Positions 5,001 through 52,500 of a stretch of 64,000 nucleotides of DNA are shown here, piece after piece. Within the stretch, counting starts at the first letter, position 1, and every line of letters begins with the position of its first letter. The notes below the pieces were generated by a model. That model made no database searches. It was given only the letters and a program-made list of their open reading frames with translations, and was not told where the DNA came from. A program made the position numbers and the translations under genes. Source of the DNA: Kiritimatiellia bacterium (GTDB lineage: Bacteria; Verrucomicrobiota; Kiritimatiellia; RFP12; UBA1067); NCBI GenBank assembly GCA_024405395.1, contig JAKSOW010000001.1, positions 6,277 through 70,276 on the forward strand, in the 5' to 3' direction.

Positions 5001-5269
5001 TGCTTCGTTTGCCAAGTGCGAAACGACTCGAGATTGACTGCCGTCTCAAGCTTTTCACACTCGCCACAAGAGGAATTAGCCCAAAACAACACCAGTGGAG
5101 CCTTAAGACTCTGTGCCAGGTTGGTAGCCGCGGTGAACGACTCAAGCCAAACGCCAGTCCTAGTTTCGTTCGAAACCTGGACTGGCGAATCAGCCTGCGC
5201 ATCCAGCGCCACCAAGGCGACAGTCACTGACAGTATCAGCGTGCCGATTCTTGAATGCAATACCGTCAA
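2012..5269 (-). CDS. large exported protein with two thioredoxin-like CxxC domains and an Ig-like segment
   Basis: The track ORF runs to 5419, but its first ~50 codons overlap the upstream gene and show no signal peptide. TTG starts at 5269 or 5260 give ...HSRIGTLILSVTVALVALDAQA, a signal peptide. The CxxC contexts are LVLFWANSSCGECEKLE and LAIYSGVLWCPYCKGMEQ. An Ig-like GQLPNGLRLYVDEQTGAV segment is present. The start codon is uncertain. Confidence 0.8.
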   Translation of the reverse strand: MTVLHSRIGTLILSVTVALVALDAQADSPVQVSNETRTGVWLESFTAATNLAQSLKAPLVLFWANSSCGECEKLETAVNLESFRTWQTKHSDYVYCYVQGTSGADIEVNEGTGACDFARSAGFTKSVGNWLTSFPFICVWWPKNGVETLAESFVGRSGRMLVPRDPAMSLSALAEHDPEMLELLAIELEQSIQKLCGSYTTNRTVAGFQCSDGEGDRLEIESNTSFVDIPLKRLPGVADDNLLVAAWPGNVLPPVTNAIHWAMGQTNAIVSLSLEKFLGCEFPTGKSIELSLIDSKGDVVSSSFVHCVDAQVNSPTNPYFVGESTIEELRYSDWTLDYDLACRKVVEGKAKAILAIYSGVLWCPYCKGMEQSLFASDLFRDWLEDNRVQLVLFDQAFSESDTYADAGHLLSYAAGLEHIHTGNERKMVSGAAYLSRHGLHADDPLVLAAHERSVRNSVSEWKAPETSATRLSTPTLLLIDGKGRVVGRCSTWRDRNGEIGSDVRYYDPEENIARLDDLLKLANRADESSDYVSTTRRELSVAGGRAQVDFQICDAAEAFILRGFSTGSFSVSVSSTHDVMISLVLDGVVVACGTNSLEFAVRKSHAQSLRPVLKLTGTMPARVAGGSSCYAAEVSCEFVPGSGNEEASAYVGFQTKCILETVEVDGCSRVTVKKKSGQLPNGLRLYVDEQTGAVCLRGQAKKKGIFDFSYEVTRKIGNANIPSGVVAVTVTIMDPREFNQFVGVGGLWTVPLVKASGDGTSDVVGMVTLKQSKSGKLSAKVVELSSQAKFFSGYWSYMNTDSGEASAQLISPKHSLKLILSASGVLSVEFGGASGSSAMGELRSFAGYYTMAFGVENVSGGNFTGSGYAMISVSKTGTVRLKGSLPSGTRFSAKSMLAIDPEDSEYAILPILHAERRDSLSALLRIHANGEKYYADETTARVVRPVRGVAARWRHVGEFDAFTSDLDCYGIYYAKRTTLESWLGLFDLKSVVCSIMGQEVPDAICRINSSSGLVSGKATFNFGEEEVKGNFSGVLTPGWIDCGCIAESFPGEFAERPFASGYFSYKTEVNGKRMTSTVPFNMFAK

Positions 5270-6639: not shown

Positions 6640-7719
6640 TCAATCTTCAGCCCTTTTGGCTTCTACCACCAATTGAAACTCGCGAACTACCTTGGTTGCC
6701 GCCACATCTCTCCCTTCAGCGGTCACGGTAATATTATAACATCCTTTTCGCCAAAGTGTACCAGAAAAAACACCTTCTTCTGAATCCAGCGAAAGTCCGA
6801 ATGGCATACCCTCTGCGCTGAATTTCATCGGCCGCGTTGCCTCTTCAACTTCTAACCGGAACTTGAATTTCTTCCCTACCTTCGCAATGATCGGTTGTTC
6901 TGGAACCGAAAATACCGGCGGCCTACAAGCAGATACATTCCTGAAATTGGCTGTATAGGTTCCCTCAGTCATACCAGAGTCAATGACTAGCTTACGAGCA
7001 TAACCTACACACCTTCCATTAGGATCCATCCATCCCCAAAACACGCTACCAGAATCATCGGCAATTGCCGTGATTACAACTGTACCACGTTCATCCGCAA
7101 GCTCCCCAGAGACTGGATCCATCTCAATTTTTCCACTCCCTCCTGTTTGAGTGAATTTGAAATACTTTGAGTCAGGACTATGCAATATCTCTTTGGGATT
7201 GGATAATTTTGCCGTATAATCAATCAAAATCTTGTCCAGAGCGGAAATCAATTCCATCTGAAGAAATTTATGTCGAATTCCAGGCATCGTTCCACGACGA
7301 CCAGAGAAAGTCCTTTTTACCTCTGTCCCGTCTTCTTTCTTCCAATATACGCAAACTATCGGTATACCAGTTACCTCCTTGAACCCCTCTCGTTGAAAAG
7401 CTTCTGTTTGCTTGAACTGAGGATTCTTGTCATTTATATGTACCATAAAAATCTTACGGTCATCTTGCCACATCTTGAAATCCGTACTATTCATGGATTT
7501 GTTCAAGCGATAACAGAAACTACATTCAGTTCCAGCACTGATAACTAGAATCGGCTTATGAGCTGATTTCGCAACCGCTAGTGCATTAGTGAAATTATCG
7601 CTCCATACACCTGGCGTAACTTCATGTACGATAGGTATTTTGGCGCTTACTTCATCCCGTCCATGACACAAGGCTGTTACTAATAAAAAAATGAATACCA
7701 CGAGCTTACTCATCTTCAT
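6640..7719 (-). CDS. exported thioredoxin-fold (CxxC) + Ig-like domain protein
   Basis: The ATG at 7719 overlaps the upstream TAA (TAATG). The signal peptide is MKMSKLVVFIFLLVTALCHG. The CxxC context is ILVISAGTECSFCYRLNKSM. IPIVCVYWKKEDGTEVKRTFSGRRGTMP is conserved in the paralogs. The Ig-like segment is AEGMPFGLSLDSEEGVFSGTL. Confidence 0.8.
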   Translation of the reverse strand: MKMSKLVVFIFLLVTALCHGRDEVSAKIPIVHEVTPGVWSDNFTNALAVAKSAHKPILVISAGTECSFCYRLNKSMNSTDFKMWQDDRKIFMVHINDKNPQFKQTEAFQREGFKEVTGIPIVCVYWKKEDGTEVKRTFSGRRGTMPGIRHKFLQMELISALDKILIDYTAKLSNPKEILHSPDSKYFKFTQTGGSGKIEMDPVSGELADERGTVVITAIADDSGSVFWGWMDPNGRCVGYARKLVIDSGMTEGTYTANFRNVSACRPPVFSVPEQPIIAKVGKKFKFRLEVEEATRPMKFSAEGMPFGLSLDSEEGVFSGTLWRKGCYNITVTAEGRDVAATKVVREFQLVVEAKRAED

Positions 7720-9551
7720 TAATTCCCTTCTTTCGTAACCAAATCTAACCAATTCGGTATGTAGAGTTCTGCCCCTGGAACCTGTTCAACCCAAGAAGGT
7801 GGCAAATCATAATCAGAAGACAACCGCCCTGCCAGACGACCAAGAATAACCCGCACCTCCATTTTCTTCTGTAAAGACTCATCTATTTTTTTCCATGAGA
7901 ATGGAGGAGAAAGGAAAATCAGTTTTTCAGGGATGCAGAGACCATGATCCTGACGGTTAAACGTTTCAAGGTATTCAGCACCTCTCCATCCAGCAAGTAC
8001 TAACGTTCGTGTCTTATCTGGCAAAGCCGAAAGTTTCCGCACGAACGCAATTGCTGGGGCATTAGTATGGGACTGGAAAAACTGTCGCATCTCCTTGCCT
8101 TGATAAATCTGATATCCGCCATCAAGAACTGCGTCATCGCCTACAATCCACACTTTGGGATCTTCTCCGTTAAGCAAAACGTGATCTGGGAATCCCTTTA
8201 TGGATACCAACTGTCTGCAATTCCTTCCCCATATACCTACCACTACAACGGCACCAAGAGAAATAACCACAGCCATACATACAGCCACCAAAATCACCCG
8301 CCGTCCAAAAGGTCTAAAATCTTTGAACCCAGAAACAAGTGAAAATATCGGCAACACCCAAAGAAGTGGCTCCTCCAACTCATGTGTGAAACAGGCTGAT
8401 ACACCAAAAGCCACAAAGACCGCAAACGGCAAAGATTTCTTGTCGCGAAACGCCCACACCGCAAACAGGAACATGAAAAACAGCCAAGCAAACACATAGC
8501 CAACACGCTCCATACAACCCATCTCTACAAGCCATGTCAAATGGCTATTCTGCAGCTCAGACACCGCCAACGGCGTATCAAAGGACTGATACCAGTCAAC
8601 ATAGGCACGACCCCCATTACCATAGCCCCAACCTGTGGGAGCATCCGCCATCATTCTCGGTACAGCAGCCCACATTGTTCGCCGATCGGTGCGGGGGTCT
8701 TGGGCAAGAAAACCGCTGGTAAACCTAGTTCCACCAAACTTAAATGCAATGCCACCAAGGGCAACCAGCAGCAACAACGCTACCAGAATTCTGCGGAACG
8801 AAAATAAATCCTTGAATTCCCTAAAATGTGGTACAATAAGGGAAACAATACCCAAAACGAATCCGAGAAGACATCCCCGCGACTGCGTAAGGAACAAGAA
8901 GACCAATGACGCCAAGAAAGGGATGACGGCAACCATCCCGAGAATTAACCGACGACCATGAAACAACACCAATGCCACGGATAGGAACATCACCGACAAC
9001 ATCATAAAGATGGCTGCCGTCTTGTTTGGATTGATGAATTCCCCAAAAGGAATCCGGAACCGACCTGATTCTTTCCAGATGTCTACAGAAGTGACATCAT
9101 CCAACATTCCTCTTTGTTTCTGCTCCCAAAGCTTAGGTATGGCTTCATCCGACTGTACAGGCTTGATGCGCTTAACAACCATCTGCTCCCGATCGAAGGT
9201 CATCTTGCGCAACGTTCCATTATAAAACTCAAATTCCGTCTGTCCCCCAGTAAAGTCATCACGCGTACGAACGGTTGTCCGCCCATATTCAGAATAACCT
9301 TCCCACGGATCTTGGGCGAGTAAACGGGAAGGATTCTCCCGATCACGATACAAATAGCGAACCGTTTGGTCGGGTTGGGTCAATCGGCAAACCTCATAAT
9401 TTATCGGGACGAAAGTGGATTCAACTACATTAGTACCCCATTTAGTTGGGTCAGTTCGAAACCCATAGTAGGCGAATGACACCCATGACTGCAACAGAAC
9501 TATTGCAATCATAAAAATACGACGAATTGACCATGACTTAAACATATTCAC
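7719..9551 (-). CDS. polytopic membrane protein, O-antigen-ligase/Wzy_C-like core with extra N- and C-terminal soluble domains
   Basis: The central region has about 10 hydrophobic helices. It includes FLTQSRGCLLGFVLGIVSL, which resembles the Wzy_C/WaaL signature region. A ~170-aa region separates the first hydrophobic segment from the core, and a ~190-aa soluble tail follows it. The start is GTG 9551 or ATG 9545, 2-8 nt after the upstream stop. Confidence 0.7.
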   Translation of the reverse strand: MNMFKSWSIRRIFMIAIVLLQSWVSFAYYGFRTDPTKWGTNVVESTFVPINYEVCRLTQPDQTVRYLYRDRENPSRLLAQDPWEGYSEYGRTTVRTRDDFTGGQTEFEFYNGTLRKMTFDREQMVVKRIKPVQSDEAIPKLWEQKQRGMLDDVTSVDIWKESGRFRIPFGEFINPNKTAAIFMMLSVMFLSVALVLFHGRRLILGMVAVIPFLASLVFLFLTQSRGCLLGFVLGIVSLIVPHFREFKDLFSFRRILVALLLLVALGGIAFKFGGTRFTSGFLAQDPRTDRRTMWAAVPRMMADAPTGWGYGNGGRAYVDWYQSFDTPLAVSELQNSHLTWLVEMGCMERVGYVFAWLFFMFLFAVWAFRDKKSLPFAVFVAFGVSACFTHELEEPLLWVLPIFSLVSGFKDFRPFGRRVILVAVCMAVVISLGAVVVVGIWGRNCRQLVSIKGFPDHVLLNGEDPKVWIVGDDAVLDGGYQIYQGKEMRQFFQSHTNAPAIAFVRKLSALPDKTRTLVLAGWRGAEYLETFNRQDHGLCIPEKLIFLSPPFSWKKIDESLQKKMEVRVILGRLAGRLSSDYDLPPSWVEQVPGAELYIPNWLDLVTKEGN

Positions 9552-37756: not shown

Positions 37757-37853
37757 AGGGGGCGGATTATATCACTAAACAGGGTATCCTGCAAGCGACC
37801 AGACAAAACAATTGCGTCCGCGGTCTGCGATTTGGTATCATTGAAGATGAGAA

Positions 37854-40800
37854 ATGGGAAACTATGGTCTCAAATCCGGTTTGGGTGGCCGCCTTGCGGC
37901 TGCCCTCTGCCTGTTTGCGACGGCGGTGCACGCCGCCTCCGCGACCTTTTCCCATGATGCCAATGCCACGGTGGCCGATTCCCGGCGCCTGACGGAGGCC
38001 ACCACGATTGCCGTCGCCAAGGATGCGCGTGTCGTCTACTCCGGCGTGTTGTCGGGGCCCGGCTCGTTGCGGCTGACGGGTGGTGGCACGCTGGTGCTGA
38101 CGGGCGCCAACACGTTCACGGGCGGCGTCACGGTTGAGGCGGGCTACCTCGTGTGCTCCAACGCCTTGGCCCTGGGCACGGGCACGGCAACCATCATGGG
38201 CCAGCGGGACGACTATTCGGGCCCCTGCGAGATTGGCTTCTGGGGTGTTGGCCCCGGCCGTTCGGATTCGGTGACGTACGCCAATCCGATTCGCGTGACG
38301 GGCTCCTCGACGGCCCTCTATCCGGCGCTCTACTTCTTCGGGCAGAACTGCGTCCTGAACGGCAGCGTCACCGCCGAGCAGGACCTTGTCTTCTACGAAG
38401 ACCACAATGCCGCCAAATCCATCAATAGCGCCAACTGGGACCGTTATCAGCATGTGCTTTCGGCCACCTTCAACGGTCCGGTGACCGCCGCCGGAATGAT
38501 CGGCTATCGCGGCATGACGCGCTGGGCCTTCAACGGCAAGGTCACGACCCCGCTTTTCCACACGGCGCTCACGCGCCCGAAACGTCCGGACGACATTGAC
38601 TCGACTGACGGCAACAACAATGCCCATGGCGCCTTCCTGCTCAATGCGGCCAACGCCATCGGCGAATTCAGGAATGCGCGTTCGCCCGTTTACCTGGGCG
38701 TGGAGAATGCGCTTGCGGGCTCGGTCCTTTCCTGGGAGAAGAACACCTCGCTCTGCACGGTGGGCTTCTTCTACAGTCAGCTTTACGGCGGCAGCTACCG
38801 CAACCAGCGTGTGGCCGGGCTTTCCAGCGTGTCGGCACCCGTGGCGGCCAGCTACGATTGGCGGGTTCATGGCGCCTCTTCGGCGAATCGGTTTGTGCTG
38901 GCGGGCACAGGCGCAGCGGCGGAGACTTTCGCGGCCAGTGCCGCCCTCACGGGATCGATGTCCTTCATTGTGGATGCGAGGCCCGACTACTCGCAGACGC
39001 TTCAAGACCGCCACCACACGTTTTCGGGCACGCTCGCCGTCTCCAACGGAACCCTGAACGTGGAACGTGGTTCGTTCTCCAATGTGACGGCGCTTGTGGT
39101 GGGCGCACACGGCACCCTGCGCCTCGACACGCCGCTCTCGGGCGGGCAGGTCTTCCCCAAGCTGTCTTCGCTGGAGATCGTGAAGGGCGGTGTGCTGGCC
39201 GTGCCCGAAACCATGCTGCTCACCACGAAGACGCTCATTGTGAACGGCACGAAGAAATCGCCCGGTCTCCATTACGCCGAAAGCGTGCCCGGCTTCACGG
39301 GGGCGGCGATAGTCTGCCTCAATGCCGACGGCTCCATGCCGGTGGTGGGCGATCTGACGGGCGCTCAGACGATCCGCGAACCGTTTGCGGCTCTGGGTGA
39401 CCGCATGTGGCGGCTTGCCGCGGGCGAGACGCTCACGTTTGAGGGAACGCTTCGCCGTGTCGAGGGCATGGTCACGGTGGTGAGCCCCAAGAACACCGCC
39501 AATCCGGCACGCGTGGTGCTCAAGGGCACCAACTCGATCGACGGGGCGCTCGTCACCACGGCGGCGGTGCTGCAGGTCTCCGGTCTGCTGGCGAACTCCT
39601 TGCGTCAGGACCAGGGCCAGGCCGCCAATCGCGGCGGGAGTGTGGTCACGGTGGATGGCTATCCGGGGGGCGGCTATCTTTTCGTCTCCAATGCCGTCAT
39701 CGAAAAGCCGGTCTATCTGCATGGCTCGGGCTATGGCATTCTGAGGAGTGCCGCCGCCACCACCACCATCCTGAAGGGCCACGTCGCCTGGCCCACGCCC
39801 TGGCCCGGCTTTACGGCGGCGAAGGATTCGGAGATCGTCTTCGAGGGCGGCTTCACGAGTGGCCACACCCTGCGCACAAACGGACAGGGCACATTCCGTG
39901 TGCGCAATACGCCGGTGACGGCCACGGCGAGCGTGGGCTGGAACATCGGCGGCGGCACCGTGGCGTTGGATGTGTGCGGCAACAAGTTCAGCTATCTGTG
40001 CGCCGGGCACTACAACGGCGACACGGCGGCGATTGTGTGCAACGCCGATCGGGCCTTTGACGTCACCGCGAACGCGGGCCTGGTGAACGGCTGCTGGTGG
40101 AACGATGGCTACAGCGGATTCTCGGTGATGACGTCTGGCTCCGGAATCGTGGACCTGAAGGGCACGGTGCAGCAGGTGAACAAGTACGCGGGCAGCAGCC
40201 GTTCGACCCTGCGGGGCGAGGCGGGCGCCCGGCTGGAGATTCTCCAGCAGACGCCGGACTCGCGGCTCAAGGCCCCCGAGCTCTACTTCGCGTCCGCGAT
40301 CGAAGGCGAGGTGACGGTGGCGATGTACGGCCCCGGCAGACTCGTCCTCACCAACCGCGTATTTGAGACGACGGGCGGATTGGAGGCCACGAACGGCATT
40401 GTGGAGATTGCCCGGGGGGCGCGTTGGCTGGGCACGGGTGACGTGACCTTGCGTGGCTCGGCCAGGCTGGTGCTGCATGAGCGCGACCAGCTGGCCCCCT
40501 CGGTGCATCTGCGGATCGGTGAGGCGGCGAAGATCGAGATTCCCGCCGGCACGTCCCTGACGGTAAAGACCGTGGACGTGTGGGATGGCACGGGCTGGCT
40601 GCCGCTGAAGACGGCCGGCAGCCATGCGGCGGGCGACGGCGGTATGCTTGCGGGATTCATCACGGGCGGCGGCACGCTGAACATTGTTGGCGAAGAGGTC
40701 GCCGCAGGCGTGGCGATGCCGCTGGAGTGGAATGTCACCTATCCGGTGGATGTGCCGTATGAGGTGGAGATCGACACGGCCAAACTTCATGCGCTGGGCG

Positions 40801-43800
40801 GCATTGCCGCCAACACGGGCTTCCGTGTGTTCGCCACCGTGGCGGGCGCCATGCGCGAAGTGGGCGTCAGCTGTCTGGCGGGACGCGTCCCCGGCAGGGT
40901 CGCCCTGCGCTTCTCGGTGCCGGCCGGGACGACGGCCCTGACGTGTCGGGCGGGCGTGGGGCGGCTGGAGCTGCTGGACGCACAGACGGCCGACAATCTC
41001 TTTGCGGGCGTGTTGGCGTCCGCCACGGGATGGGTATGCGACAAGACCGTTTCCTGTGCTGTGCGCACGAATGGTCTGTCCATCGCCTCGACGGGTGCGG
41101 GCAACTATTATGCGAAGTGCAGCGTGCCCGTGCCCGCCGATTGGCGGGGCAAGAGCGTGCGCCTGGAAATCGACGCCACGAGCGAGAGCGTGCTGCCGTG
41201 GGGCGGCTTCATCCGCCTGTGGCAGTATGACGCCAACGGCACGCGCCTGCCCGAGAGTGTCTCCGATGTGCGTTGGACGAGTCACATGCGCCCGCCGGAG
41301 AAGCTCGCCCAATATCGCGAGAATGGCCGCATCCATCCAGACTGTGCCACCGTGGAGGCGCGTTTCGAGGTGCGGGGCACGTCGACGGCCTTTGACCTCT
41401 ATGGTCTGCCGCTGGCGGATGAGGAGGACACGAAGGCCCGCCTGCTGGTTTCGCGTCTGGTGCTGCGGCGGGCGGCGGAATTGCCGTTCCCGAAATATGA
41501 CGACCGCTTCTTCTCCGCGGGCGTCTCGGGGGATGCGGGCGATACGGCGCTTCGCCTGGGCGGCGAAGACCACAACGGCTTCTTCTACGCCACGCACAGC
41601 CAGGCGGTTTGGAGCGAGGGAATGGATTCGCGTGATGAGGCGCAGAATTTCTTCCCGGCGGGAGATGGCACCGTCGAGGCGTGGTTCAGGGCCGATGCCT
41701 GGCCAAGCAAGGAGACGTATCTCTTCCAGGGGTTCCAGGGCTACTCGGCCCAGAAGTCCGCCAATGGGCGAAGCGAACTCTTCTCGTTGCGGTACACGCA
41801 TTCCTCGAAGCGCCTTTACCTTTATATGAAGGATCGGCAGAACACGGTGTTCTCAGCGCAAGCCACACAGGCGCTGCCGGTGGGCGAGTGGGTGCACATC
41901 GCCGCCCAGTGGAGCGTCAACGGCCAGGCCAGGGTCTTCGTGAACGGCAAGGAGGCGCTGGCACGCGACATCACGGGCTTCAGGCCGGTTGACCTCAGTG
42001 CCGAGCAGTATCCCGATGAGGAGATTGTGACGGAGTTCTTCCTTGGCTCGACTTCCGCCTCGGCCCGCAACACCGAAACGGCGGAGAATGCGGGCGCGCC
42101 TTTCTTCCAGGGGGCCGTGGATCAGCTGCGCGTCTCCACGGGCACGCGCTATGCGGGCGCGTTCACGCCGGCCAGACGTCATGTGCCGGATGCCGCCACA
42201 CGTGCGCTCTTCGCGTTCGACCGATCCTACGATGGCGAGTCGGGCGGCGGATGCCGATTCATCCGCGGTTCGATCCGCTCGTTTGCGGACCGTGTGCGGC
42301 ACACGCTTGACCTTGGCGGCAATGAGGTTCCGTACTGGCCCGCCGAGATCCTGCCCGAGAACGACCACCGCCAGGTCCTGAACATCGACAACTATCCCGA
42401 TCTGCCGACGGTGGACGAATTCCTCTCGGCCCGCCGAGCCACAAATGCGGTCTTCGATGTCTCCCCGGGCGCCACGTTCACGTTGAATCTTCCGGGCACG
42501 GTCTACCGCGACTACGTGGAGATCGCGAACACGGGAACATCGCCGCTGCTCTACCCCACGGTCGTCAACGCCGGCGAGATCGATCCCCGCAGCTTTGGCG
42601 ACATCCGCGACACGCTGGGGCTGGCCGAGCTGGATGATCGGGCATGCGCCAACAAGATTTTCCAGTTCGTGCTGGGCGCAAGCGACTACTTCATGAACCA
42701 CAGCGCCTTCTTTGCGCCCGGCACCGACACGCCGGGCGATGTGGAGTACCAGGCACTCATGATGCTCAACGGCTACTGCGGCTTCGAGTGCGGCCCGCTG
42801 AACAGCATGACGAAGAATCTCTTCACCTGTTCGGGCGGGCTGCCCTCTTCGCAGACGGGCGGCTATGGCCACAGCTTCGAGCAGGTGTTCTATGACGGCA
42901 AGAACCACATCTACGATCTGTCGGCCCAGAAGTTCTTTCCCGCGATGGACAACGAGACGGCGGCCTATCTTGAGGAAGCGGGCGATCAGCCGGGCATCTT
43001 CCACCGGATCGGCGGCAATCCCGACCACTTCATCCGCAAGTCCCGCCGTGGTGCCGATGCGTCTTCGCCGTCGTTCAGCGAGAAGGTGGCGATGAGCCTC
43101 AATCCTGGCGAGCGCCTGCGCGTGTGGTTCGACAATGACGGCGAAGGCAACGACCTCCAGTGCAGCAAGAGCTCCGTGCAGAACGATTCCGCCCTCCACA
43201 AGGAGAACTACGACGACCGCTGCCATGCCGTTGCGGGATCGGCCGGCAGCATCTGGCGTGTGCACCGCCACTTCCCGCACTACGGCAATGGATTCCTCGT
43301 GTACGAAGGACCGGTGGATGTGGCGAATCCCGCCTTTGCCGCCTCGACGAAGTCCTCTGCCGTCTATGCGGTGAAGAGCTGCTATCCCATCACCGCGGCC
43401 GAGTACTCGGCCAAGCTGCAGGATGGCACCTATGCGCCAATGCAGCTCTCCACCGACAGGGGCGCAACCTGGCGTGCGCTGCCGGCTGGCAAGGTGCGCT
43501 ATCCCGTGCGTGCGCGCACCGAATACCTTGTGCGGGCGATGGCAGATCCCGCGAAGGTCGTGCGTTTCTCGGCCATCACCGAGGTGCAGGTGAACGTGCG
43601 CATCTTCACGGGCGGCGTGCACGCCGGGGCCAATGCCCTGACCTTCAAGGCCAATGGCGGAGAGGCGGCTCGCGTCACGCTGGGCTGGCGTGAGCCGGCG
43701 AAGCGCCTGGAGATCCGGGGCGGCGTCTATTCGGGCACGATCCCCGGCAGCGAACGGCAGCTCGTGCTGCTTGATCCGGCCAGCACGCTGACGCTTGACG

Positions 43801-46800
43801 TGGCGGGGGCCTCCGAGCAGGCGGTTGTGCGTGCCTATGGCGGACTGTCCGCCACGCTGGCGGATGGGCGGCTCACGCTGGCGGCCGGAACGTTGGCGCG
43901 TGGCTTCGGGGCCGTGGACGTGATCGACGGCGATGCCGTCAAGCAGTTCACCGTGCTGGTGCTGGCGAATGCGCGCCTGGCCACGGCGGCGAATGGCGGG
44001 CTTGTGCCCGCGGGCACGACGCATCTGCTGCAGCCCGATGTGGAGCGCGTGCAGCCCTGCCTCAACTTCACGAACGCGGCTTCGTCGGCCACCGTCGGCT
44101 TTGCCGAATTGCCGGCGGGCAAGTACGCGGTTCTGCCGCTCGACCGTTTTGAAAGCCATCCGGCCGTGGTGGGGAGCGCACCCCTGCTTGTGTCGGTGCC
44201 GGGCATTGCCGGCAGCTTCAAGATGAGCTATGGCGCCAACGGCACCTGCACGTTCCTCAAGGCCCAATACGGCAAGGCGGGCGTCACGAAGCGCGCCAAC
44301 TTCAAGTGGGGACACGTCACCACGACCGAAGGCAACTCCTACTACTCGGGCCAGATGCGCGTGTTCGACGTGCCGCAGGCGTTCTCGTCGTTGGCGGTGT
44401 CGTGCAATGCCACGGTCACGAACGGCGTTGAGCTGGCGGCCGTGCTGGTGGCGCCCTGCGACAGGGCGGGCGAAACCGAAGAGCTCTACTGCGATCTCCT
44501 GAAGGTGCTCTGCGGCTACAACTGTCAGCCGTGGCGCGTGAACGCCGGCACAGAGGCGGCGAAGGGAACGCTGACGCTGCACCCCACCTACGTGAACTGC
44601 AGCGTCGACTTCGAGTACGCCGAGGACATCGCGGGCCTGGCGGTCGAATACCGGGCCGCGGGCGCGAACGCCGCCTGGAGCCGTGCGCCGCGCTTCCCGC
44701 GCTTCACCGACAAGTGCGAGAACCGCGGCTCCATCCTTGATCTTGCCGAGGACACGGCCTACGAGGTGCGGATCGTGACGCCCGGCGGTGCCGTGCTGGC
44801 GCACGACACGTTCCGCACCTGGCGGAGCGACGTGCCGGTGGCGCGCACGGTGACGATCGACCCCGCCACCAGCTCGGTGCCGATCACGATCTCCGCCCGT
44901 GGCACGGAAGACGGTTGGATCCGCTATGTGCTCAAGCCCGGCAGCGTGCTCACGAACAGGACGGTCTCGGTTGGCGGCAGTTCGGCGGCGGTGACGTTTG
45001 ACGTGACGGGCGCAAGGAACGTGCTTCTCGACGACATGCGGCTGGTGGGCGGCGCACGCTACGTCATCCGCGTCACGAATTCGCAGGGCGTGCGGATCCG
45101 CAACTGTGACCTCTCCGGCTGGGGACGCGTGGGCGTGCCGCGATATGATCTGCCGGAAGGCGGAAAGTTCTACTACGACTACAACGGCACGACCAAGGCA
45201 ATCAACGGCGACCCGGCCATCTACATCGGATCGGGCGCGTCTGCGGTCACGGTGGAGCGCTGCTATGTGCACGATCCCCGTGGGCACGCCAACAGCTGGT
45301 ACTACTCGCATCCGGCCGGTCCGCAGGCGGTGATGATGTTCCGCCCCGACCATTCCGTCGTCTTGCGCTGGAACGACTTCTGCGGCGGCGATTGGCACCG
45401 CTACAACGACGTCGTTGAGGGGGATGGAAACTTCTTCGCCAACGGCGGCTTCAACCGCGATGCCGACGTCTACGGCAACTACATGGCCTTCTCGCAGGAC
45501 GATGCGATTGAGCTCGACGGCGGACAGCGGAATGTGCGCTGCTTCGACAATCGCTTCGAGTACAACTACTGCGGCGTCTCCGTGCAGGGCTGCATGACGA
45601 GCCCCTCCTACGTCTACCGCAATCTGTTCTCCGGGATGTGCGACGTCTTTTCGCTGAAGGGCCAGACCCTGAAGACCTCCACCAACACCTCGGGCGTGGA
45701 CGCCGTCACCTACGTGTGGGACAATTTCATGTGGGGCGGCGGATCGGGCACGTCCTTCCCCAATGCGAGCAAGTACGACTGGACACTTGAGGTGACGGGC
45801 AATGTGCTTTGCGCCAACCAGAAGATCTCCAACTTCGGGATTGCGACCGCCCGCAGCGTGAATGAAGGCAATGTTGAGGGTGCCCAGGTCAACGAAGGCC
45901 AGCTCGACGCCTCCTTCCCCAGGCGCAGTCTGCCGTTCGTCCTTGACCGTGCGCGCCTCACGGGACCGCGGGTGGTGGGCGGCAAGGCGGGGGCGTCGCG
46001 GCCCCTCGGGTCCGTTGACGTCGGGGCGGCGGTGTTCCGGTGGGAGGGCGCGAATGGCGTGACGTCGCACTGGCCGTTTGTCTGCACCGCCCCCGTCGCG
46101 ATTTCCACCAACGCCGTCTGCACCTACGATCTGCGGCGGGATCTCGTCTTTGCCGCCGATGTCTCCTCTGGGCCGTTGCCGTTCGTCAAGACGGGCCCGG
46201 GCGCCATGGTGCTCGCCGGCGACACGGATGGCACGGCCTTCAGCTTCGGCACTTCCCAGACGGGCAATGGCTATCCGGCGTTGCCGGGCTATGCGACGCG
46301 CTTCTTCCTGCCCGCGGACGGCTCCATGCCCACCACGGGCTTCGCCGGGATCTTCTCGCTGATGGACGGGCGGTTCGTCGTGAACCGCGGGCGCATGACG
46401 GTGAAGCAGACGAGTTCGCGGGCGTTCATCGGCGGCTGGACGGCCGATGCCGGCGAGACGGAGAAGGATGTGGCCTTTGAGGTGAATGGCGGCAGGGTGG
46501 ACTTCAACACCATCGTCTACCTCGGCCATCGCCACGGCCTGCTCAACTTCAATACGCCGAATGGTCCGGCGAAGGCCTGCCTCAACGTCAACGGCGGAAC
46601 GTTCTTCATGGGTTCGTCGAAGAGTTTTGTCATGGGCAGCTATGACGTCCCCTCGGGGCGTGTGCTCAACAGCGACCTTCGGCTAAACGTGGGCCGGGAT
46701 GGCGAGTTCGCCATGTCGCCGCAGTACTATGCGCCGTTCAGCGTTCCGCAGCGTCGTGGACAGGCCGCCGCCATCACCGTGAACGGCGGTCGTTTCCGCA

Positions 46801-48383
46801 GCAACGTGGTGCTTGTGGGCACCGCCGCCAGTGCCGACGACGTCACCGCTCCAGTTTCGGTCACGGTGGCGAATGGCGGCGAATTCCGCTGCGAATCGTT
46901 CACCAACAATCTTCTGCAGAAAACCTCCGCGTCTCCGCTCACGATTGTCGTCGGCGAGGGCGGGGCGTTCCTGGTGGACCACTTCGCGAATCTTCCCGGC
47001 GGCATCGTCGACATGACCGTGGACGGCGGCATTCTGGGCAATGCGCAGATCAACGGGCGGCAGCTGGGCGCGCGCAAGATTCTTGCGGCCGCAAACTTCG
47101 CGAAGCTGGCGGTGGGGCCGAAGGGCATGACCGTTCGGGCAAAGGGGAAGACGCCGGCGGGCGAGGCGATCACCTGTGTGGTCGGCACGCCGCTTTCCGG
47201 CTCGGGCCCGATCACGATTGACGCCGACCGCGGCAACAGGGTGGAGTTCGCGGACGGCAGCGCCTTTGAGGGCCGCCTGGTGATGAACGCCGGTGCGTTG
47301 CGCATTCCGGCGGGGATGACGCTCACGGCCGACGACATCTCCGGGCTGGACGCGCTTGAGCTTGAGGGCACGCTCGTCTGCCAGGTCGCCGATGGCGCCA
47401 AGATCTCACTGAATTGTCCGGTGACGGGTGGCGGCCGGATCGTCAAGACGGGCGGCGGCACGTTGCGCCTGGCCGCCCATGTGGCGGCAGACGTCCTGGA
47501 GGCACGCGAGGGCGTGGTGGAGGTGGGGGCTTCCTTCAATGCCGTTCGCCGGGTGCGCTTCGGACGCGGCATCGTGAAGCTCGCCGCCAAGGAGGCCCTG
47601 TCGCTCGCGGAACTGGAATGGACGGATCCTTTGGCGGCAATGGACACGTGCGCCTATCTGGACCTGAATGGCTTCGCCAACACCAATGGCGTGCTCGTCT
47701 CGGTGACGCCCGCTGCGGCGGACGGACACTTCTGGGTGAAGAACAGCGGGTCCGGTACGGTCGTGTGGACGCTCGTCAATCGTGCACCGGGCACGAATGT
47801 TGCCTATCTGGCCACCGCCGAACGCGTGCGCGTGAACATCAAGCGCGTTTCCGTCCCGAGCCCCCGGGGCACGCAGATCATGAGCAATCTGGTGGTGAGG
47901 GCCAATGGCTATGGTTTCACCGCCGCCTGCGAGAACTATGTGCTGGCGGGCGATTGCCATTTCCCCAACCTTGAGAATCTGCAGTTCAACAGCGGGGCGA
48001 AGACTGTGCTCGAGTTCGCGAACCCGAAGCCAGACGCGTTTCCGTCGCTGCGGCAGATCGTCATCGACAGCCACACGCTCACGCTCAACGACCGGGCCCT
48101 CGCCTCGCTGTATGCCCGGCGGCGGAAGTGGACGTACTCCAGCAATCAGGCCTCCAGCCTTGTGCTGCCGCCGAACAGCCGTCTGGTTGCGGCCGCCTGG
48201 ATCGAGCGTGGCGTCTCGCCCAGCGTGAATCACGCCAAGGGCGTGTACGGCCCCGAACAGTATGCCGAGGGCTGGCCCAATCGCACGCTCAAGCCCGCCT
48301 CGGCCGGCATTCGCGTGCTGTCCTCCGGTCCGGGGGCGGTGACGCTGCCCGACGAGGCCAACTTCATGTTCTTCATGCGATAG
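37854..48383 (+). CDS. giant (3509 aa) exported multidomain surface protein
   Basis: The signal peptide is ...LAAALCLFATAVHAASA. PATR-type repeats such as GGGTLVLTGANTFTGGVTVEAGYL occur at the N-terminus and again near the C-terminus (GGGTLRLAAHV). The LamG_3-like sequence is DGTVEAWFRADAW...GEWVHIAAQW...GAVDQLRVS (~41560-42150). A Cys-His-Asp core lies at ~42770-42920. An FN3-like region plus a beta-helix (VIRVTNSQGVRIRNCDLSG...) lies at ~44530-45850. Confidence 0.85.
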   Translation: MGNYGLKSGLGGRLAAALCLFATAVHAASATFSHDANATVADSRRLTEATTIAVAKDARVVYSGVLSGPGSLRLTGGGTLVLTGANTFTGGVTVEAGYLVCSNALALGTGTATIMGQRDDYSGPCEIGFWGVGPGRSDSVTYANPIRVTGSSTALYPALYFFGQNCVLNGSVTAEQDLVFYEDHNAAKSINSANWDRYQHVLSATFNGPVTAAGMIGYRGMTRWAFNGKVTTPLFHTALTRPKRPDDIDSTDGNNNAHGAFLLNAANAIGEFRNARSPVYLGVENALAGSVLSWEKNTSLCTVGFFYSQLYGGSYRNQRVAGLSSVSAPVAASYDWRVHGASSANRFVLAGTGAAAETFAASAALTGSMSFIVDARPDYSQTLQDRHHTFSGTLAVSNGTLNVERGSFSNVTALVVGAHGTLRLDTPLSGGQVFPKLSSLEIVKGGVLAVPETMLLTTKTLIVNGTKKSPGLHYAESVPGFTGAAIVCLNADGSMPVVGDLTGAQTIREPFAALGDRMWRLAAGETLTFEGTLRRVEGMVTVVSPKNTANPARVVLKGTNSIDGALVTTAAVLQVSGLLANSLRQDQGQAANRGGSVVTVDGYPGGGYLFVSNAVIEKPVYLHGSGYGILRSAAATTTILKGHVAWPTPWPGFTAAKDSEIVFEGGFTSGHTLRTNGQGTFRVRNTPVTATASVGWNIGGGTVALDVCGNKFSYLCAGHYNGDTAAIVCNADRAFDVTANAGLVNGCWWNDGYSGFSVMTSGSGIVDLKGTVQQVNKYAGSSRSTLRGEAGARLEILQQTPDSRLKAPELYFASAIEGEVTVAMYGPGRLVLTNRVFETTGGLEATNGIVEIARGARWLGTGDVTLRGSARLVLHERDQLAPSVHLRIGEAAKIEIPAGTSLTVKTVDVWDGTGWLPLKTAGSHAAGDGGMLAGFITGGGTLNIVGEEVAAGVAMPLEWNVTYPVDVPYEVEIDTAKLHALGGIAANTGFRVFATVAGAMREVGVSCLAGRVPGRVALRFSVPAGTTALTCRAGVGRLELLDAQTADNLFAGVLASATGWVCDKTVSCAVRTNGLSIASTGAGNYYAKCSVPVPADWRGKSVRLEIDATSESVLPWGGFIRLWQYDANGTRLPESVSDVRWTSHMRPPEKLAQYRENGRIHPDCATVEARFEVRGTSTAFDLYGLPLADEEDTKARLLVSRLVLRRAAELPFPKYDDRFFSAGVSGDAGDTALRLGGEDHNGFFYATHSQAVWSEGMDSRDEAQNFFPAGDGTVEAWFRADAWPSKETYLFQGFQGYSAQKSANGRSELFSLRYTHSSKRLYLYMKDRQNTVFSAQATQALPVGEWVHIAAQWSVNGQARVFVNGKEALARDITGFRPVDLSAEQYPDEEIVTEFFLGSTSASARNTETAENAGAPFFQGAVDQLRVSTGTRYAGAFTPARRHVPDAATRALFAFDRSYDGESGGGCRFIRGSIRSFADRVRHTLDLGGNEVPYWPAEILPENDHRQVLNIDNYPDLPTVDEFLSARRATNAVFDVSPGATFTLNLPGTVYRDYVEIANTGTSPLLYPTVVNAGEIDPRSFGDIRDTLGLAELDDRACANKIFQFVLGASDYFMNHSAFFAPGTDTPGDVEYQALMMLNGYCGFECGPLNSMTKNLFTCSGGLPSSQTGGYGHSFEQVFYDGKNHIYDLSAQKFFPAMDNETAAYLEEAGDQPGIFHRIGGNPDHFIRKSRRGADASSPSFSEKVAMSLNPGERLRVWFDNDGEGNDLQCSKSSVQNDSALHKENYDDRCHAVAGSAGSIWRVHRHFPHYGNGFLVYEGPVDVANPAFAASTKSSAVYAVKSCYPITAAEYSAKLQDGTYAPMQLSTDRGATWRALPAGKVRYPVRARTEYLVRAMADPAKVVRFSAITEVQVNVRIFTGGVHAGANALTFKANGGEAARVTLGWREPAKRLEIRGGVYSGTIPGSERQLVLLDPASTLTLDVAGASEQAVVRAYGGLSATLADGRLTLAAGTLARGFGAVDVIDGDAVKQFTVLVLANARLATAANGGLVPAGTTHLLQPDVERVQPCLNFTNAASSATVGFAELPAGKYAVLPLDRFESHPAVVGSAPLLVSVPGIAGSFKMSYGANGTCTFLKAQYGKAGVTKRANFKWGHVTTTEGNSYYSGQMRVFDVPQAFSSLAVSCNATVTNGVELAAVLVAPCDRAGETEELYCDLLKVLCGYNCQPWRVNAGTEAAKGTLTLHPTYVNCSVDFEYAEDIAGLAVEYRAAGANAAWSRAPRFPRFTDKCENRGSILDLAEDTAYEVRIVTPGGAVLAHDTFRTWRSDVPVARTVTIDPATSSVPITISARGTEDGWIRYVLKPGSVLTNRTVSVGGSSAAVTFDVTGARNVLLDDMRLVGGARYVIRVTNSQGVRIRNCDLSGWGRVGVPRYDLPEGGKFYYDYNGTTKAINGDPAIYIGSGASAVTVERCYVHDPRGHANSWYYSHPAGPQAVMMFRPDHSVVLRWNDFCGGDWHRYNDVVEGDGNFFANGGFNRDADVYGNYMAFSQDDAIELDGGQRNVRCFDNRFEYNYCGVSVQGCMTSPSYVYRNLFSGMCDVFSLKGQTLKTSTNTSGVDAVTYVWDNFMWGGGSGTSFPNASKYDWTLEVTGNVLCANQKISNFGIATARSVNEGNVEGAQVNEGQLDASFPRRSLPFVLDRARLTGPRVVGGKAGASRPLGSVDVGAAVFRWEGANGVTSHWPFVCTAPVAISTNAVCTYDLRRDLVFAADVSSGPLPFVKTGPGAMVLAGDTDGTAFSFGTSQTGNGYPALPGYATRFFLPADGSMPTTGFAGIFSLMDGRFVVNRGRMTVKQTSSRAFIGGWTADAGETEKDVAFEVNGGRVDFNTIVYLGHRHGLLNFNTPNGPAKACLNVNGGTFFMGSSKSFVMGSYDVPSGRVLNSDLRLNVGRDGEFAMSPQYYAPFSVPQRRGQAAAITVNGGRFRSNVVLVGTAASADDVTAPVSVTVANGGEFRCESFTNNLLQKTSASPLTIVVGEGGAFLVDHFANLPGGIVDMTVDGGILGNAQINGRQLGARKILAAANFAKLAVGPKGMTVRAKGKTPAGEAITCVVGTPLSGSGPITIDADRGNRVEFADGSAFEGRLVMNAGALRIPAGMTLTADDISGLDALELEGTLVCQVADGAKISLNCPVTGGGRIVKTGGGTLRLAAHVAADVLEAREGVVEVGASFNAVRRVRFGRGIVKLAAKEALSLAELEWTDPLAAMDTCAYLDLNGFANTNGVLVSVTPAAADGHFWVKNSGSGTVVWTLVNRAPGTNVAYLATAERVRVNIKRVSVPSPRGTQIMSNLVVRANGYGFTAACENYVLAGDCHFPNLENLQFNSGAKTVLEFANPKPDAFPSLRQIVIDSHTLTLNDRALASLYARRRKWTYSSNQASSLVLPPNSRLVAAAWIERGVSPSVNHAKGVYGPEQYAEGWPNRTLKPASAGIRVLSSGPGAVTLPDEANFMFFMR

Positions 48384-48386
48384 GGG

Positions 48387-49271
48387 ATGCAGACGAGAAT
48401 GAACAGGATCTTCATGATGGTGGTGGCCGCAGTTGGCCTGGCGCATGCCACGGTGGTCGACCCCGGTGCCGGCGTTGCCGTGAACCTGGGCACGCTCACG
48501 GGCATGGAGAACGTGGAGACGTGCTCCGGCATCGTCACCGCCAGGCTTGGCAACGACTTCGGCGGCACGCTGAAGGCCTCGGGCGGCACGTTGGCGCTTA
48601 CGGGATTTGGTGCGCCCACGGCGCTTACGGTGCGAACGAAGTGGACGGATGCCGATGCGCCGCGTTCCCTGCCGTTCACGGTGCGCAAGAATGCGGAGTT
48701 CGACTGGTTTGAGGTGGAGCCCGCGGGCGGCATCCTCTCGCCTGGCACCGAGACGGAGTTCACCGTGCTGCTCAACACGGCGGTGATGACCAATCGCCAT
48801 TTCTATCGCGGGGCGTTCTTCGTGGCGGCCACGAATGGCCTGTCTCGTCCGGTGAGCGTAAGTGTGGAGACGGACTTCGTGCCGCCGTTTCACGCCGAGC
48901 GCCCTGGCGACATCGCCCTCTATGCCGATGTCGCCCATCCGGCTTCCGGCTCGGCCGAGGCGGGAGAGGCGGAATATGCCTTTGACGTCACCGTGGCCAC
49001 GAACTACTATTTCATGATCCACGGATCGGCGATGACAAAGCAGACGATTGCCGCCGCCGTGGACGGCGACTCCTATGCGAACAGCGTACAGCAGGTGATG
49101 TACTATCCCATTTGGACGATGATCGCCCCAGGCAAGGCCTTTGGCGACTACATGCGCGCCTATCCGCTGACGGTCGGGCGCCATGTGATCCGCATCAAGG
49201 CGGACTATGCCGCCTTCCCCTATGACGGGGTGGTGCTCACCACCAATCCCACCTCCTTCGAACCACGGTGA
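48387..49271 (+). CDS. exported protein, Ig-like + jelly-roll/CBM-like (hypothetical), coupled to the giant gene
   Basis: The start is 3 nt after the giant gene's TAG. The signal peptide is MNRIFMMVVAAVGLAHA. FDWFEVEPAGGILSPGTETEFTVLLN resembles BACON/Ig-like modules. The C-terminal YYFMIHG...GRHVIRIKADYAAFPYDGVVLT looks CBM-like. Confidence 0.65.
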   Translation: MQTRMNRIFMMVVAAVGLAHATVVDPGAGVAVNLGTLTGMENVETCSGIVTARLGNDFGGTLKASGGTLALTGFGAPTALTVRTKWTDADAPRSLPFTVRKNAEFDWFEVEPAGGILSPGTETEFTVLLNTAVMTNRHFYRGAFFVAATNGLSRPVSVSVETDFVPPFHAERPGDIALYADVAHPASGSAEAGEAEYAFDVTVATNYYFMIHGSAMTKQTIAAAVDGDSYANSVQQVMYYPIWTMIAPGKAFGDYMRAYPLTVGRHVIRIKADYAAFPYDGVVLTTNPTSFEPR

Positions 49272-49536: not shown

Positions 49537-52500
49537 ATGAGTTTGACAATCAACGATTTCCGCAATGTCCTCGGCAAGGTGAATGATGGTGACGTCGTCT
49601 TCGGACGGACCGCGGCTGGCCTGGAGGACAAGAACGCCATCGAAAAGGCCAATTACGGCGGCACAATCGCCAAGCTGTTCCGCAACTACCGCACTGTGGT
49701 CTCGGATCCTGCCCGCAACCGCGAGATCCGTCAGGCCTTCATGAGCGCCATCGAGAATTCGCGGGAAGGTCGTGCGGCTCAGGCGGAGACGCTGAACGCC
49801 ATCCGGCAGCAGCTTGGCCTCGAGCCGGCGGACCAAATTGCCGCCCGACCGCTCACCCGACGCGACGTGCAGGCGATCCTGGAGCGTCTTGACGCCGACG
49901 TGAAGGTGCACAAGCTGGTTGTTAAGGAATTCGCCTCGCTCGCCAACCGCGGACTTTATGACGCCAACATGCTGAATGAGGTCACGGCGATTCTGGATGA
50001 ACCCCAGATGCGGACGATCAAGGCCTACAAGTCGCTTCTGCCGAAGAACTATCTGGGCCTGACGTCGGACGCCGCCACCAAGTTCGTCAAGAACAACATC
50101 AACGTGATCCGTGCCAATGTGGCCGGCGAGCTCTACATGCTGCTGCGTGAAGGACGTTTGAAAAATCCCGCCGCCCGTTTGACGCGGTATGACGTCGAAC
50201 TGACCGTCCGCCAGGTCGTACGCGACATCATGAAGGCCTATGCGGCGGGCGTTCCGGCACAGTCGAGCGTGACGCGCCTTCCGAAGGTGCCTGAGCAGCC
50301 GCAGGAACTGGATGCGAATCTTAAGGCGCGTTTCGACGTCCAGCCTGGCGAGGAGGGGGGCGGGACCAAGGCGGTGCCCAAGCTGAAGGCTATTCTGCCG
50401 GTGATTTTCGGTGATGCCGGCGAGGCTCCCGAGAATGGCCTCAGCTACGCCAAGCTGGCGGCCAAGGGGCTCTCGGCCATGCTGATGGACGACCTCTCGC
50501 GTCTGTTGGTGCGCCTTTCCGACGAAAACCACCACAACCTGAATGTCGTGAGCGACCAGGCCAACGCCGTGGCCGGTGGTCTGCTGGGGGTCGATCTCGC
50601 CGAGCTGGCCGCACTTGATCCTGCGGACCTGAAGAAGCTCGGCCGTCGGATTCTGCGTGAACTCGCGGGCGCAGGCGTCGATCTGGCTGCGCTGCCGCCT
50701 GGGGCGCTTCTTCAGCGGGTGGGCACGAAGATCCAGGAGGCGCTCCACCCCGCCGCGACCGACAAGCTGATCGCCGACCGTGTCGCGAACCTCTTCCCGA
50801 ACGCAACGAACGAGGTGAAGGAGAACGCCACGAAGGCGATCAAGGAACGCCTCGCAGGGGCGACGGACATCCAGAAGATGTCGGTGGCGGCCTACCGCAA
50901 GGCGGTGTTCAAGGCAGCTCTGCAGGGCGTGGCGGTGCCCGCCGAGGCGGATTCAAGCGTGCTCGACGAAATCGCACGCGATGTGGAGATGTCGATGAAC
51001 GAGACGGCCGAGACGCGTCGCAATCGTTTCATCGAGATAGGAAGCGACAAGGCCTGCAGCATGTTCTTCGCACTGTTCTCCGTCCACAAAGATGAAACGA
51101 AGGAACTTCTCGGCATGCTGTTGGCGCTCGTGGTGAAGTTCGGCCCAACGCGTTTGTACGAGGCCGGGATTCTTGAGAATGACCAGAGTTTCGGGGTCAA
51201 GGACGTGACAGGTAACGCAGCAAAGGAGGAGTTGTTGGTGTCGCGCATCCGTACGCTTGCCAACGAACTGAGCACCGCCGATGCGCGTTTGGTTGCCGAC
51301 TACGTGAAGTGTGGTGCCGCAGCCGCCGACAGTGGCATCCGCCTTGGCTTCGCCAATGCCTGGACGGACAAGCCGAAAGGGTACATGCCCGTGTTGGAGG
51401 CCTTCCGAGAGGGGCTTATCGATTTCGCGAATCTCAATCCTGTCGCCTGCCGTCGTCTGCTGCCCATATTCGTGAGTGTGTTCGCCGTGCAGGGCGGCGA
51501 AGAGACCAGTGGTTATGTCGAGCGCATTCCTCTGAACGAGTCGGATGAGGCCGTCGCTAATGGCGAAGATGTGGAGACGATCCGCGTGATCTATCCCGAG
51601 GTGCGTACGGCCCAGCTGAAGATGGGGAGCGACCTCTCGCGGTTCAGCATTGGGGAGCCGGAGCCTGATATGCGCAAGCGTCAGCTCTTCAACGCACCCG
51701 GCGCCCGATTCTCGTTGTCGTGCGGCTTCGGAACGGTTGACGTGGCGGCGATTCTGAAGCTTCTTTCGGAATGCGGCATCGATCCAGCTCGCCTCAACGA
51801 GCCTGAGACCTACCGGCAGTTCCTCGTCCTGCAGCATCTGGCGTCCGCCAACGGCTTCCACCTTGAGGGGCTCAAGGAATGGAGCGAGCGCACGGTGGGC
51901 AAGCCGTTTGCCGAGATCCACCTGATTGACATCGCCAAGCTGCTTGTGAAGCAAGGTGACGCGGACGCCGTGATCAAGGACAAGATGGACGACTACGGCA
52001 TCTTCTCCGGCAACAAGCCCAAGGTGGCGAACTTCGTCCGCGGACGCGTCACGCTGCAGGAGGCGAAGCTGTCCAAGGAGGAGATGGTGCAGCTTCGTCA
52101 GGCGCTTCTGTCGCTGACGGGCGCAGACGCCACCGTCACAACAAAGGTGATGGGCTATGACGTTACGCTCAGCCGCAGCGTGAACGGCACGCTGACGGGT
52201 GTCTTCGACGGGATGCCGTTCGCCTATCCGCGTCCGCTGAACGAGCTGGTGGCCGAGATCGAGAACGCGATCGTCGCCCAGGCCGGCGAATATTCGGTGG
52301 ACGACGTGAAGGCCATTCTGCCGCAGATCGAGAACGGCGTGCCTGTGGGGATGCCGATTGGCCGTGCCCGCGAGCTCGCCGTCGGCGTGCTCGCCGCCAA
52401 GCTCGGTGAGCTGCCCGTGACGTTCAGTGCCTTCTCCACGGTCGATCTCGTCACGAAGGCCGTAGCCGCCCTTGATGGCCGCTTCACGAAGGCGAACCTG

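Follow-up and report, generated by a model that had tools for sequence, protein, structure and literature searches.

Among the bacterial proteins of Pfam family PF01841 is the transglutaminase of Streptococcus suis, the structure of which is deposited as 4XZ7 (PMC10318531) and the active-site residue of which is Cys-302 in the numbering of the describing paper (PMC5612097). TgpA of Pseudomonas (6G49) belongs to the same family. Similar folds are found in a putative cysteine protease of Cytophaga hutchinsonii (3ISR) and in BDI_1141 of Parabacteroides (3KD4), both transglutaminase-like proteins from structural genomics with no assigned function, as well as in LapG (BTLCP, MEROPS C93, PF06035), a small separate periplasmic protease, which releases the giant adhesin LapA in trans, and in the peptide:N-glycanase (PNGase) Png1/NGLY1. 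Kiritimatiellia and Lentisphaeria, two groups known mainly from metagenomes, are studied for the degradation of complex glycans. In the literature, no report was found on a transglutaminase-like protein in Kiritimatiellia, nor on TglA of S. pyogenes. Here, a stretch of 64,000 nucleotides from a Kiritimatiellia bacterium (assembly GCA_024405395.1, contig JAKSOW010000001.1, positions 6,277 to 70,276; referred to as the window) was analysed, which harbors a giant gene encoding a protein of 3,509 amino acids (aa). Residues ~1540 to 1760 of this protein probably form a catalytically competent, highly diverged domain of the transglutaminase-like (papain-fold, clan CA) superfamily, as judged from the sequence and a structural model.

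Compared to the bacterial PF01841 proteins 4XZ7 and 6G49, the domain in the window shows an identity of only ~14 to 17%, and its family is not detected directly by the Pfam model. It is part of a LamG-bearing module of 1,280 aa, which is located inside a giant protein with PATR repeats; its nucleophile belongs to a CxxxC pair, and a DPRS motif is conserved further upstream. The domains flanking the fold in 3ISR and 3KD4 are unlike those found here. In contrast to LapG, the domain is internal to a giant protein; neither the giant protein nor its transglutaminase-like region matched PF06035 in Pfam. The proteins constitute a new, unannotated family with an unusual fused architecture within a well-known superfamily. 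The giant gene and the domain are located as follows:

37854..48383, plus strand: giant gene, 3,509 aa (list of open reading frames (ORFs) and translation)
42471..43133, plus strand: transglutaminase-like domain as modelled, residues 1540-1760
~42606-42968, plus strand: part equivalent to the PF01841 core, about residues 1585-1705

The superfamily assignment was obtained through relatives of the domain. A word-indexed search retrieved 13 homologues (41-56% identity), the four of which with a source name stem from metagenome-assembled genomes (MAGs) of Lentisphaeria. The alignment of these close homologues (A2) served as the basis of a profile search; the exhaustive hidden Markov model (HMM) search of 1.8 billion representatives yielded 127 proteins at E ≤ 1e-3, of which 92 also passed a cutoff of E ≤ 1e-30. 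Shorter proteins are found in the tail of the match list (E about 6e-07 to 7e-04), among them six of 199 to 606 aa (P0112, P0114, P0118, P0126, P0133 and P0135), in which Pfam recognizes PF01841 (Transglut_core) above the gathering score on the matched stretch (1e-09 for P0133, E 8e-10 for P0135). When A2 was compared to the set of PF01841-positive distant relatives (A4) with hhalign, a probability of 99.3% was obtained (E 5e-20, 198 columns) and Cys, His and Asp were in register. Furthermore, the profile of a third alignment (A3), comprising 80 sequences with 21 to 67% identity to the window protein, detected 4xz7_A in the PDB at E 7.8e-05, and Cys, His and Asp line up in this match; 3isr_A followed at E 0.4. 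Within the stretch covered by the match, 4XZ7 has no cysteine other than the one opposite Cys1646. By transitive homology on the sequence level, the domain of the giant protein belongs to the superfamily. The only marginal Pfam matches on the transglutaminase-like region, MCH cyclohydrolase (E 0.05-0.13) and Cas9_PI_C (E ~0.2), were taken as chance; MCH also recurred in the PDB search.

Exactly three columns of A3 are invariant (C107, H134 and D149), which correspond to Cys1646, His1673 and Asp1688 of the giant protein. The same residues are likewise invariant in A5, an alignment of 44 sequences covering the whole module. Their positions, together with that of a second cysteine, are:

42777..42779, plus strand (TGC): Cys1642, subfamily-specific, in a CxxxC pair with Cys1646; 42/80 in A3; loop before the helix
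42789..42791, plus strand: Cys1646, predicted nucleophile; 80/80 in A3; first residue of helix 107-121; aligned with the Cys of 4XZ7
42870..42872, plus strand (CAC): His1673, predicted general base; 80/80 in A3; directly before strand 135-141; aligned with the His of 4XZ7
42915..42917, plus strand (GAT): Asp1688, predicted third member of the triad; 80/80 in A3; last residue of strand 144-149; aligned with the Asp of 4XZ7

These residues lie in two peptides, YQALMMLNGYCGFECGPLNSMTKNLF (residues 1632-1657, from base 42747) and GGYGHSFEQVFYDGKNHIYDLS (residues 1669-1690, from base 42858), both in frame in the giant gene. An earlier reading of the same DNA, made from the letters alone (in the following, the original prediction), had quoted peptides of this region and the codons at 42777, 42870, 42894 and 42915, all of which are present exactly and in frame. 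The histidine at 42870 chosen there is retained as His1673. From the two aspartates offered, that at 42915 (Asp1688) stands, and that at 42894 (Asp1681, GAC) drops out with conservation in 47/80 sequences. The cysteine at 42777, put forward as catalytic, had to be replaced by Cys1646, located four residues later.

That Cys1642 nevertheless acts as nucleophile, with Asp1681 as possible acid, is very improbable. The sequence GYCGF around Cys1642 is reminiscent of the G.C..F context found in some transglutaminases; however, Cys1642 is lost in relatives retaining the rest of the site, where the column is occupied mostly by Gly, Pro, Leu, Ala or Tyr in the distant ones. The distant relatives share the motif NxYGYGxC...GH.v.Ev.Y.g.WH..D, and the GYGxC of the PF01841-positive proteins puts the cysteine in the column of Cys1646 and not in that of Cys1642. 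In addition, it is Cys1646 that starts a helix in the model and aligns with the cysteine of 4XZ7. The G.C..F context, to which the original prediction had pointed, turned out to be family-specific rather than the conserved motif. The sole match to G.C..[FYWH] in the giant protein is GMCDVF (residues 2594-2599, window 45633-45650), which is located just past the beta-helix region, outside the transglutaminase-like domain, and is probably coincidental.

The spacing of the three residues had also been taken as evidence, but is found at chance level: the giant protein has 22 instances of the bare pattern C-x(19-59)-H-x(7-24)-D, compared to 20.8 ± 5.2 in residue shuffles. This number and the lack of a direct Pfam match would be in line with Cys, His and Asp having come together by chance in an unrelated fold, an explanation of practically negligible probability, which is refuted by the homology, the conservation and the fold matches. 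It is by conservation across the aligned sequences, not by the spacing pattern, that the site exceeds chance. Cys1646, His1673 and Asp1688 are clear targets for mutation.

Two further positions stand out in the alignments. The DPRS motif (residues 1577-1580, window 42582-42593), which precedes the nucleophile by ~65 residues, and Glu1753 (window 43110-43112) in a C-terminal LxPGExFR strand are invariant in the 44 sequences of A5. In the 80 sequences of A3, Asp1577 is found in 68, Arg1579 in 57 and Ser1580 in 74; Glu1753 is found in 72, the remaining eight being gaps. Both are candidates for metal- or substrate-site positions. A redox control of the nucleophile by the Cys1642-Cys1646 pair would be pure speculation.

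The fold was predicted with AlphaFold2 for the 221-residue domain (residues 1540-1760) using the 80-sequence alignment, which gave a mean predicted local distance difference test (pLDDT) score of 92.3 and a predicted template modelling (pTM) score of 0.87. In the model, helix 107-121 begins exactly at Cys1646, and Cys1642 is located in the preceding loop. His1673 (134 in the model) lies right before strand 135-141 and Asp1688 (149) ends the next strand, 144-149. A cysteine at the start of a helix combined with His and Asp on adjacent strands, as seen in this model, is the defining arrangement of the papain-like/transglutaminase-like core. Foldseek searches against the PDB returned 3ISR, 3KD4, TgpA (6G49), TglA (9CRN), 4XZ7 and PNGases as top matches, with a probability of 1.00 for the first seven. 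Also matched were LapG, protein-glutaminase, PeiW, menin, XPC/Rad4 and protein 4.2. With the family profile, the hhalign result, the invariance of the triad and the AlphaFold2 and Foldseek results, the transglutaminase-like kind of domain named in the original prediction is borne out.

Since menin, XPC/Rad4 and protein 4.2 (band 4.2) are inactive, their presence among the structural matches would fit a pseudo-enzyme, in which the transglutaminase-like fold is kept as a binding or scaffold module. This is improbable, as the triad residues are the sole invariant columns in A3 and are kept in all 80 sequences over the whole identity range. In the known inactive members of the superfamily, residues of the triad are lost.

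Several observations weigh against a catalytically competent domain of this superfamily. Even with the cutoff relaxed to E ≤ 10, Pfam found neither PF01841 nor any other transglutaminase or peptidase family in the whole protein, in a 367-aa region or in the 13 close homologues. A search of the giant protein against NCBIfam likewise gave no transglutaminase or peptidase family and added only the autotransporter-type beta-strand repeat, and PDB sequence searches with the single sequence and with the shallow A2 profile found nothing relevant. An initial AlphaFold run, for which 400 aa and 14 sequences were used, reached a pLDDT of 52 overall and 28 to 56 in the core, and was left out of the fold search. 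With solved structures, no more than ~110 to 140 core residues superpose, which keeps the TM-scores low (~0.35). The juxtaposition of Cys, His and Asp is deduced from the topology of the model and the alignment to 4XZ7. Finally, oxidation may affect a thiol that is exposed on a secreted protein, and a disulfide could arise between the two cysteines of the CxxxC pair. The direct PF01841 search, which the original prediction had suggested as a check, was negative, whereas the family profile reached PF01841-positive proteins. Taken literally, the lack of a significant profile match would have led to a wrong dismissal of a domain that the sequences of its relatives point to. The standard Pfam scan misses the domain and a profile built from relatives, combined with structure prediction from a deep alignment, recovers it; the case therefore calls for caution.

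For a catalytically competent domain, a reaction mechanism can be proposed by analogy with every characterised member of the fold. The His-activated, Asp-oriented thiolate of Cys1646 would attack the carbonyl of a substrate amide and form a thioester acyl-enzyme. This intermediate would then react either with water, as in a protease or amidase, or with an amine, which amounts to transamidation (cross-linking). The reaction would take place outside the cytoplasm. Judged by analogy, extracellular hydrolysis of an amide bond in a protein or glycoprotein is somewhat more likely than cross-linking, since hydrolases make up most of the bacterial proteins matched by structure (LapG, PNGase, protein-glutaminase, PeiW and putative proteases such as 3ISR and 3KD4). 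This preference is opposed by the best PDB sequence match, 4XZ7, which is described as a transglutaminase.

A true cross-linking transglutaminase (EC 2.3.2.13-type) would form Gln-Lys isopeptide bonds and thereby anchor the giant protein to the envelope, to proteins of the host or the matrix, or to itself. This alternative is possible but carries a rather low probability. Besides the predominance of hydrolases and putative proteases among the bacterial fold matches, the accessory domains of animal-type transglutaminases (TG1-7, factor XIII), Transglut_N and Transglut_C, were not found by Pfam; instead, the domain in the window is flanked by LamG and by unassigned beta-rich regions. Moreover, the distance from Cys to His is 27 residues here, compared to 58 residues in TG2 (C277/H335). 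The adhesin-like nature assumed in the original prediction, and the cross-linking or cleavage of host substrates derived from it, are speculation.

The transglutaminase-like domain is part of a larger conserved module. The remaining features of the giant protein are:

residues 1 to ~28: Sec-type signal peptide at the N-terminus (by inspection)
to residue ~950: PATR-repeat region
38076..38153, plus strand: PATR/autotransporter-associated beta-strand repeat, residues 75-100 (Pfam PF12951, E 3.1e-07; NCBIfam TIGR02601, E 1.1e-09)
40701..44543, plus strand: conserved module with LamG and transglutaminase-like domain, about 1,280-1,290 aa, residues ~950-2230 (BLASTP; 44-sequence alignment A5)
41652..42137, plus strand: LamG/concanavalin-like lectin domain, residues 1267-1428 (Pfam PF13385 Laminin_G_3, E 4.3e-14)
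residues 2240-3509: C-terminal beta-helix/repeat region
45066..45587, plus strand: right-handed beta-helix, residues 2405-2578, a weak match (Pfam PF13229, E 2.5e-04; 21.1 bits against a gathering score of 25.9)

In Pfam, the PATR repeat, Laminin_G_3 and the weak Beta_helix were the only families matched by the whole 3,509-aa protein. By BLASTP, residues ~950-2230 match more than 50 proteins of 1,230 to 1,350 aa over nearly their full length. These stand-alone proteins start with a signal peptide, read from the sequences, followed by LEWN..PYEVE, as found at residue ~953 in the giant protein. Laminin_G_3 was present in six of six full-size members scanned (1,285-1,373 aa), two of the matches being just under the Pfam gathering score. 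The order within the module is an N-terminal beta-rich part, the LamG domain, the transglutaminase-like domain and a C-terminal beta-rich part. When the profile of the whole module (A5) was searched against the PDB, only the LamG domains of pappalysin and pentraxin were matched. The named members of the family belong to Kiritimatiellia or Lentisphaeria and are labelled as 'hypothetical protein' or 'LamG domain-containing protein', and most matches are unnamed metagenome proteins. The triad provides a probable catalytic centre for more than 100 clusters (at 50% identity) of otherwise blank proteins, typically of ~1,300 aa.

In two related loci, L001 (4765-11921) and L012 (1474-9022), the gene for the module follows directly after a gene encoding a separate PATR-repeat protein (1,073 or 1,222 aa), with gaps of 14 and 22 bp. 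From this adjacency, the giant protein of the window, in which the module is joined to PATR-repeat and beta-helix regions, is read as a fusion of genes that are neighbours in its relatives, the two arrangements being a gene fusion/fission pair. The orthologue P0016 (3,496 aa, 59% identity) is fused in the same way and aligns from residue 14 to the end, and in P0057 the C-terminal block of the giant protein (q2240-3149) is located at the N-terminus instead. According to the sequences and the model, at least some giant PATR-repeat surface proteins would be enzyme-bearing, beyond a structural or adhesive role. Two unusual combinations were seen among the relatives: in locus L011, the P0102-like protein (589-5031, 1,480 aa), a paralogue in the P0103 locus, has Sigma70_r4_2 and Laminin_G_3, and in P0013, a fragment of 234 aa, a Sigma70_r2 match is joined to the start of the transglutaminase-like domain. 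These are either real sigma-factor-like fusions or artefacts of gene calling or assembly.

The public record of the giant protein (MCQ2389808.1, 2,253 aa, 'LamG domain-containing protein', from a Kiritimatiellia MAG) starts at an internal methionine, residue 1257, and its annotation makes no mention of a transglutaminase domain. Because the alignment with the 3,496-aa orthologue sets in at residue 14, the deposited model appears to be truncated at the N-terminus by 1,256 residues (window 37854-41621). The GC content at third codon positions (GC3) of the giant gene is 0.84, similar to other genes in the same part of the window. Two long ORFs on the minus strand beneath it (41853..46535 and 37767..41801) were treated as shadow ORFs, since neither has a Pfam match and the GC content at first codon positions of 41853..46535, the only minus-strand ORF of which the composition was checked, is 0.85 and mirrors the GC3 of the giant gene.

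Directly downstream of the giant gene, a second secreted protein is encoded, and genes for carbohydrate-active enzymes flank five of five related loci:

48387..49271, plus strand: gene for a 294-aa secreted protein, no Pfam family
L001: flanked by GH28 and GH95
L005: flanked by GH42
L008: flanked by GH141-like, AXE1, GH20 and GH27
L011: flanked by GH29 fucosidase, rhamnogalacturonan-lyase-like and GH42
L012: flanked by glucuronoyl esterase

The gene for the 294-aa protein is also found directly after the orthologue in L008 (20503-21387), with the same length and 59% identity, and its product is likely a functional partner of the giant protein. Downstream of the giant gene, at a distance of about 10 kb, the window contains a GH20 gene, and the gene of a distant PF01841-positive relative (P0154) directly follows a GH2 beta-mannosidase gene. 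Such a setting would suit a PNGase-type or similar glycan amidase, in which LamG binds a glycoconjugate and the thiol centre cuts a sugar-peptide or other amide bond as a contribution to foraging on polysaccharides or glycoproteins. The fold matches include PNGases (3ESW, 2F4M/2F4O), the distance from Cys to His equals that of yeast Png1 (C191/H218, 27 residues), and a lectin-like LamG domain is invariably located upstream of the transglutaminase-like domain. However, Kiritimatiellia genomes are generally rich in genes for carbohydrate-active enzymes, and against this high background the neighbourhood is a lead only. Png1/NGLY1 is cytosolic and eukaryotic, whereas the window protein is secreted and bacterial; it also lacks the Zn-binding CxxC pairs of eukaryotic PNGases (Cys1598 is the only cysteine in residues 1540-1641) and has no sequence-level match to PNGase. 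On balance, a glycan amidase of this type is unlikely as the specific function. It is similarly doubtful whether the module with LamG and transglutaminase-like domain might represent a new class of secreted, glycan-directed thiol amidases or transamidases, by which Kiritimatiellia and Lentisphaeria would act on glycoconjugates together with the flanking hydrolases, esterases and lyases, displayed in the window protein on a PATR-repeat surface fibre.

The original prediction had also linked the thiol enzyme to a thiol-redox island in the window. This connection found no backing, as no evident thiol-redox gene was among the 18 neighbouring ORFs scanned. Further downstream, a second giant ORF (49537-55584, plus strand, 2,015 aa) has an ABC1/APH-type atypical kinase signal (residues ~1472-1551) as its only Pfam signal. 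The composition of the window changes along its length: the first ~16 kb have 44-50% GC with a skew of -0.18 to -0.21, and from 28 kb on 60-66% GC with a slightly positive skew are found. An ORF similar to O-antigen ligases (Wzy_C; 7719..9551, minus strand) is located in the low-GC part, which could be either a horizontally acquired surface-polysaccharide island or the result of a chimeric MAG contig.

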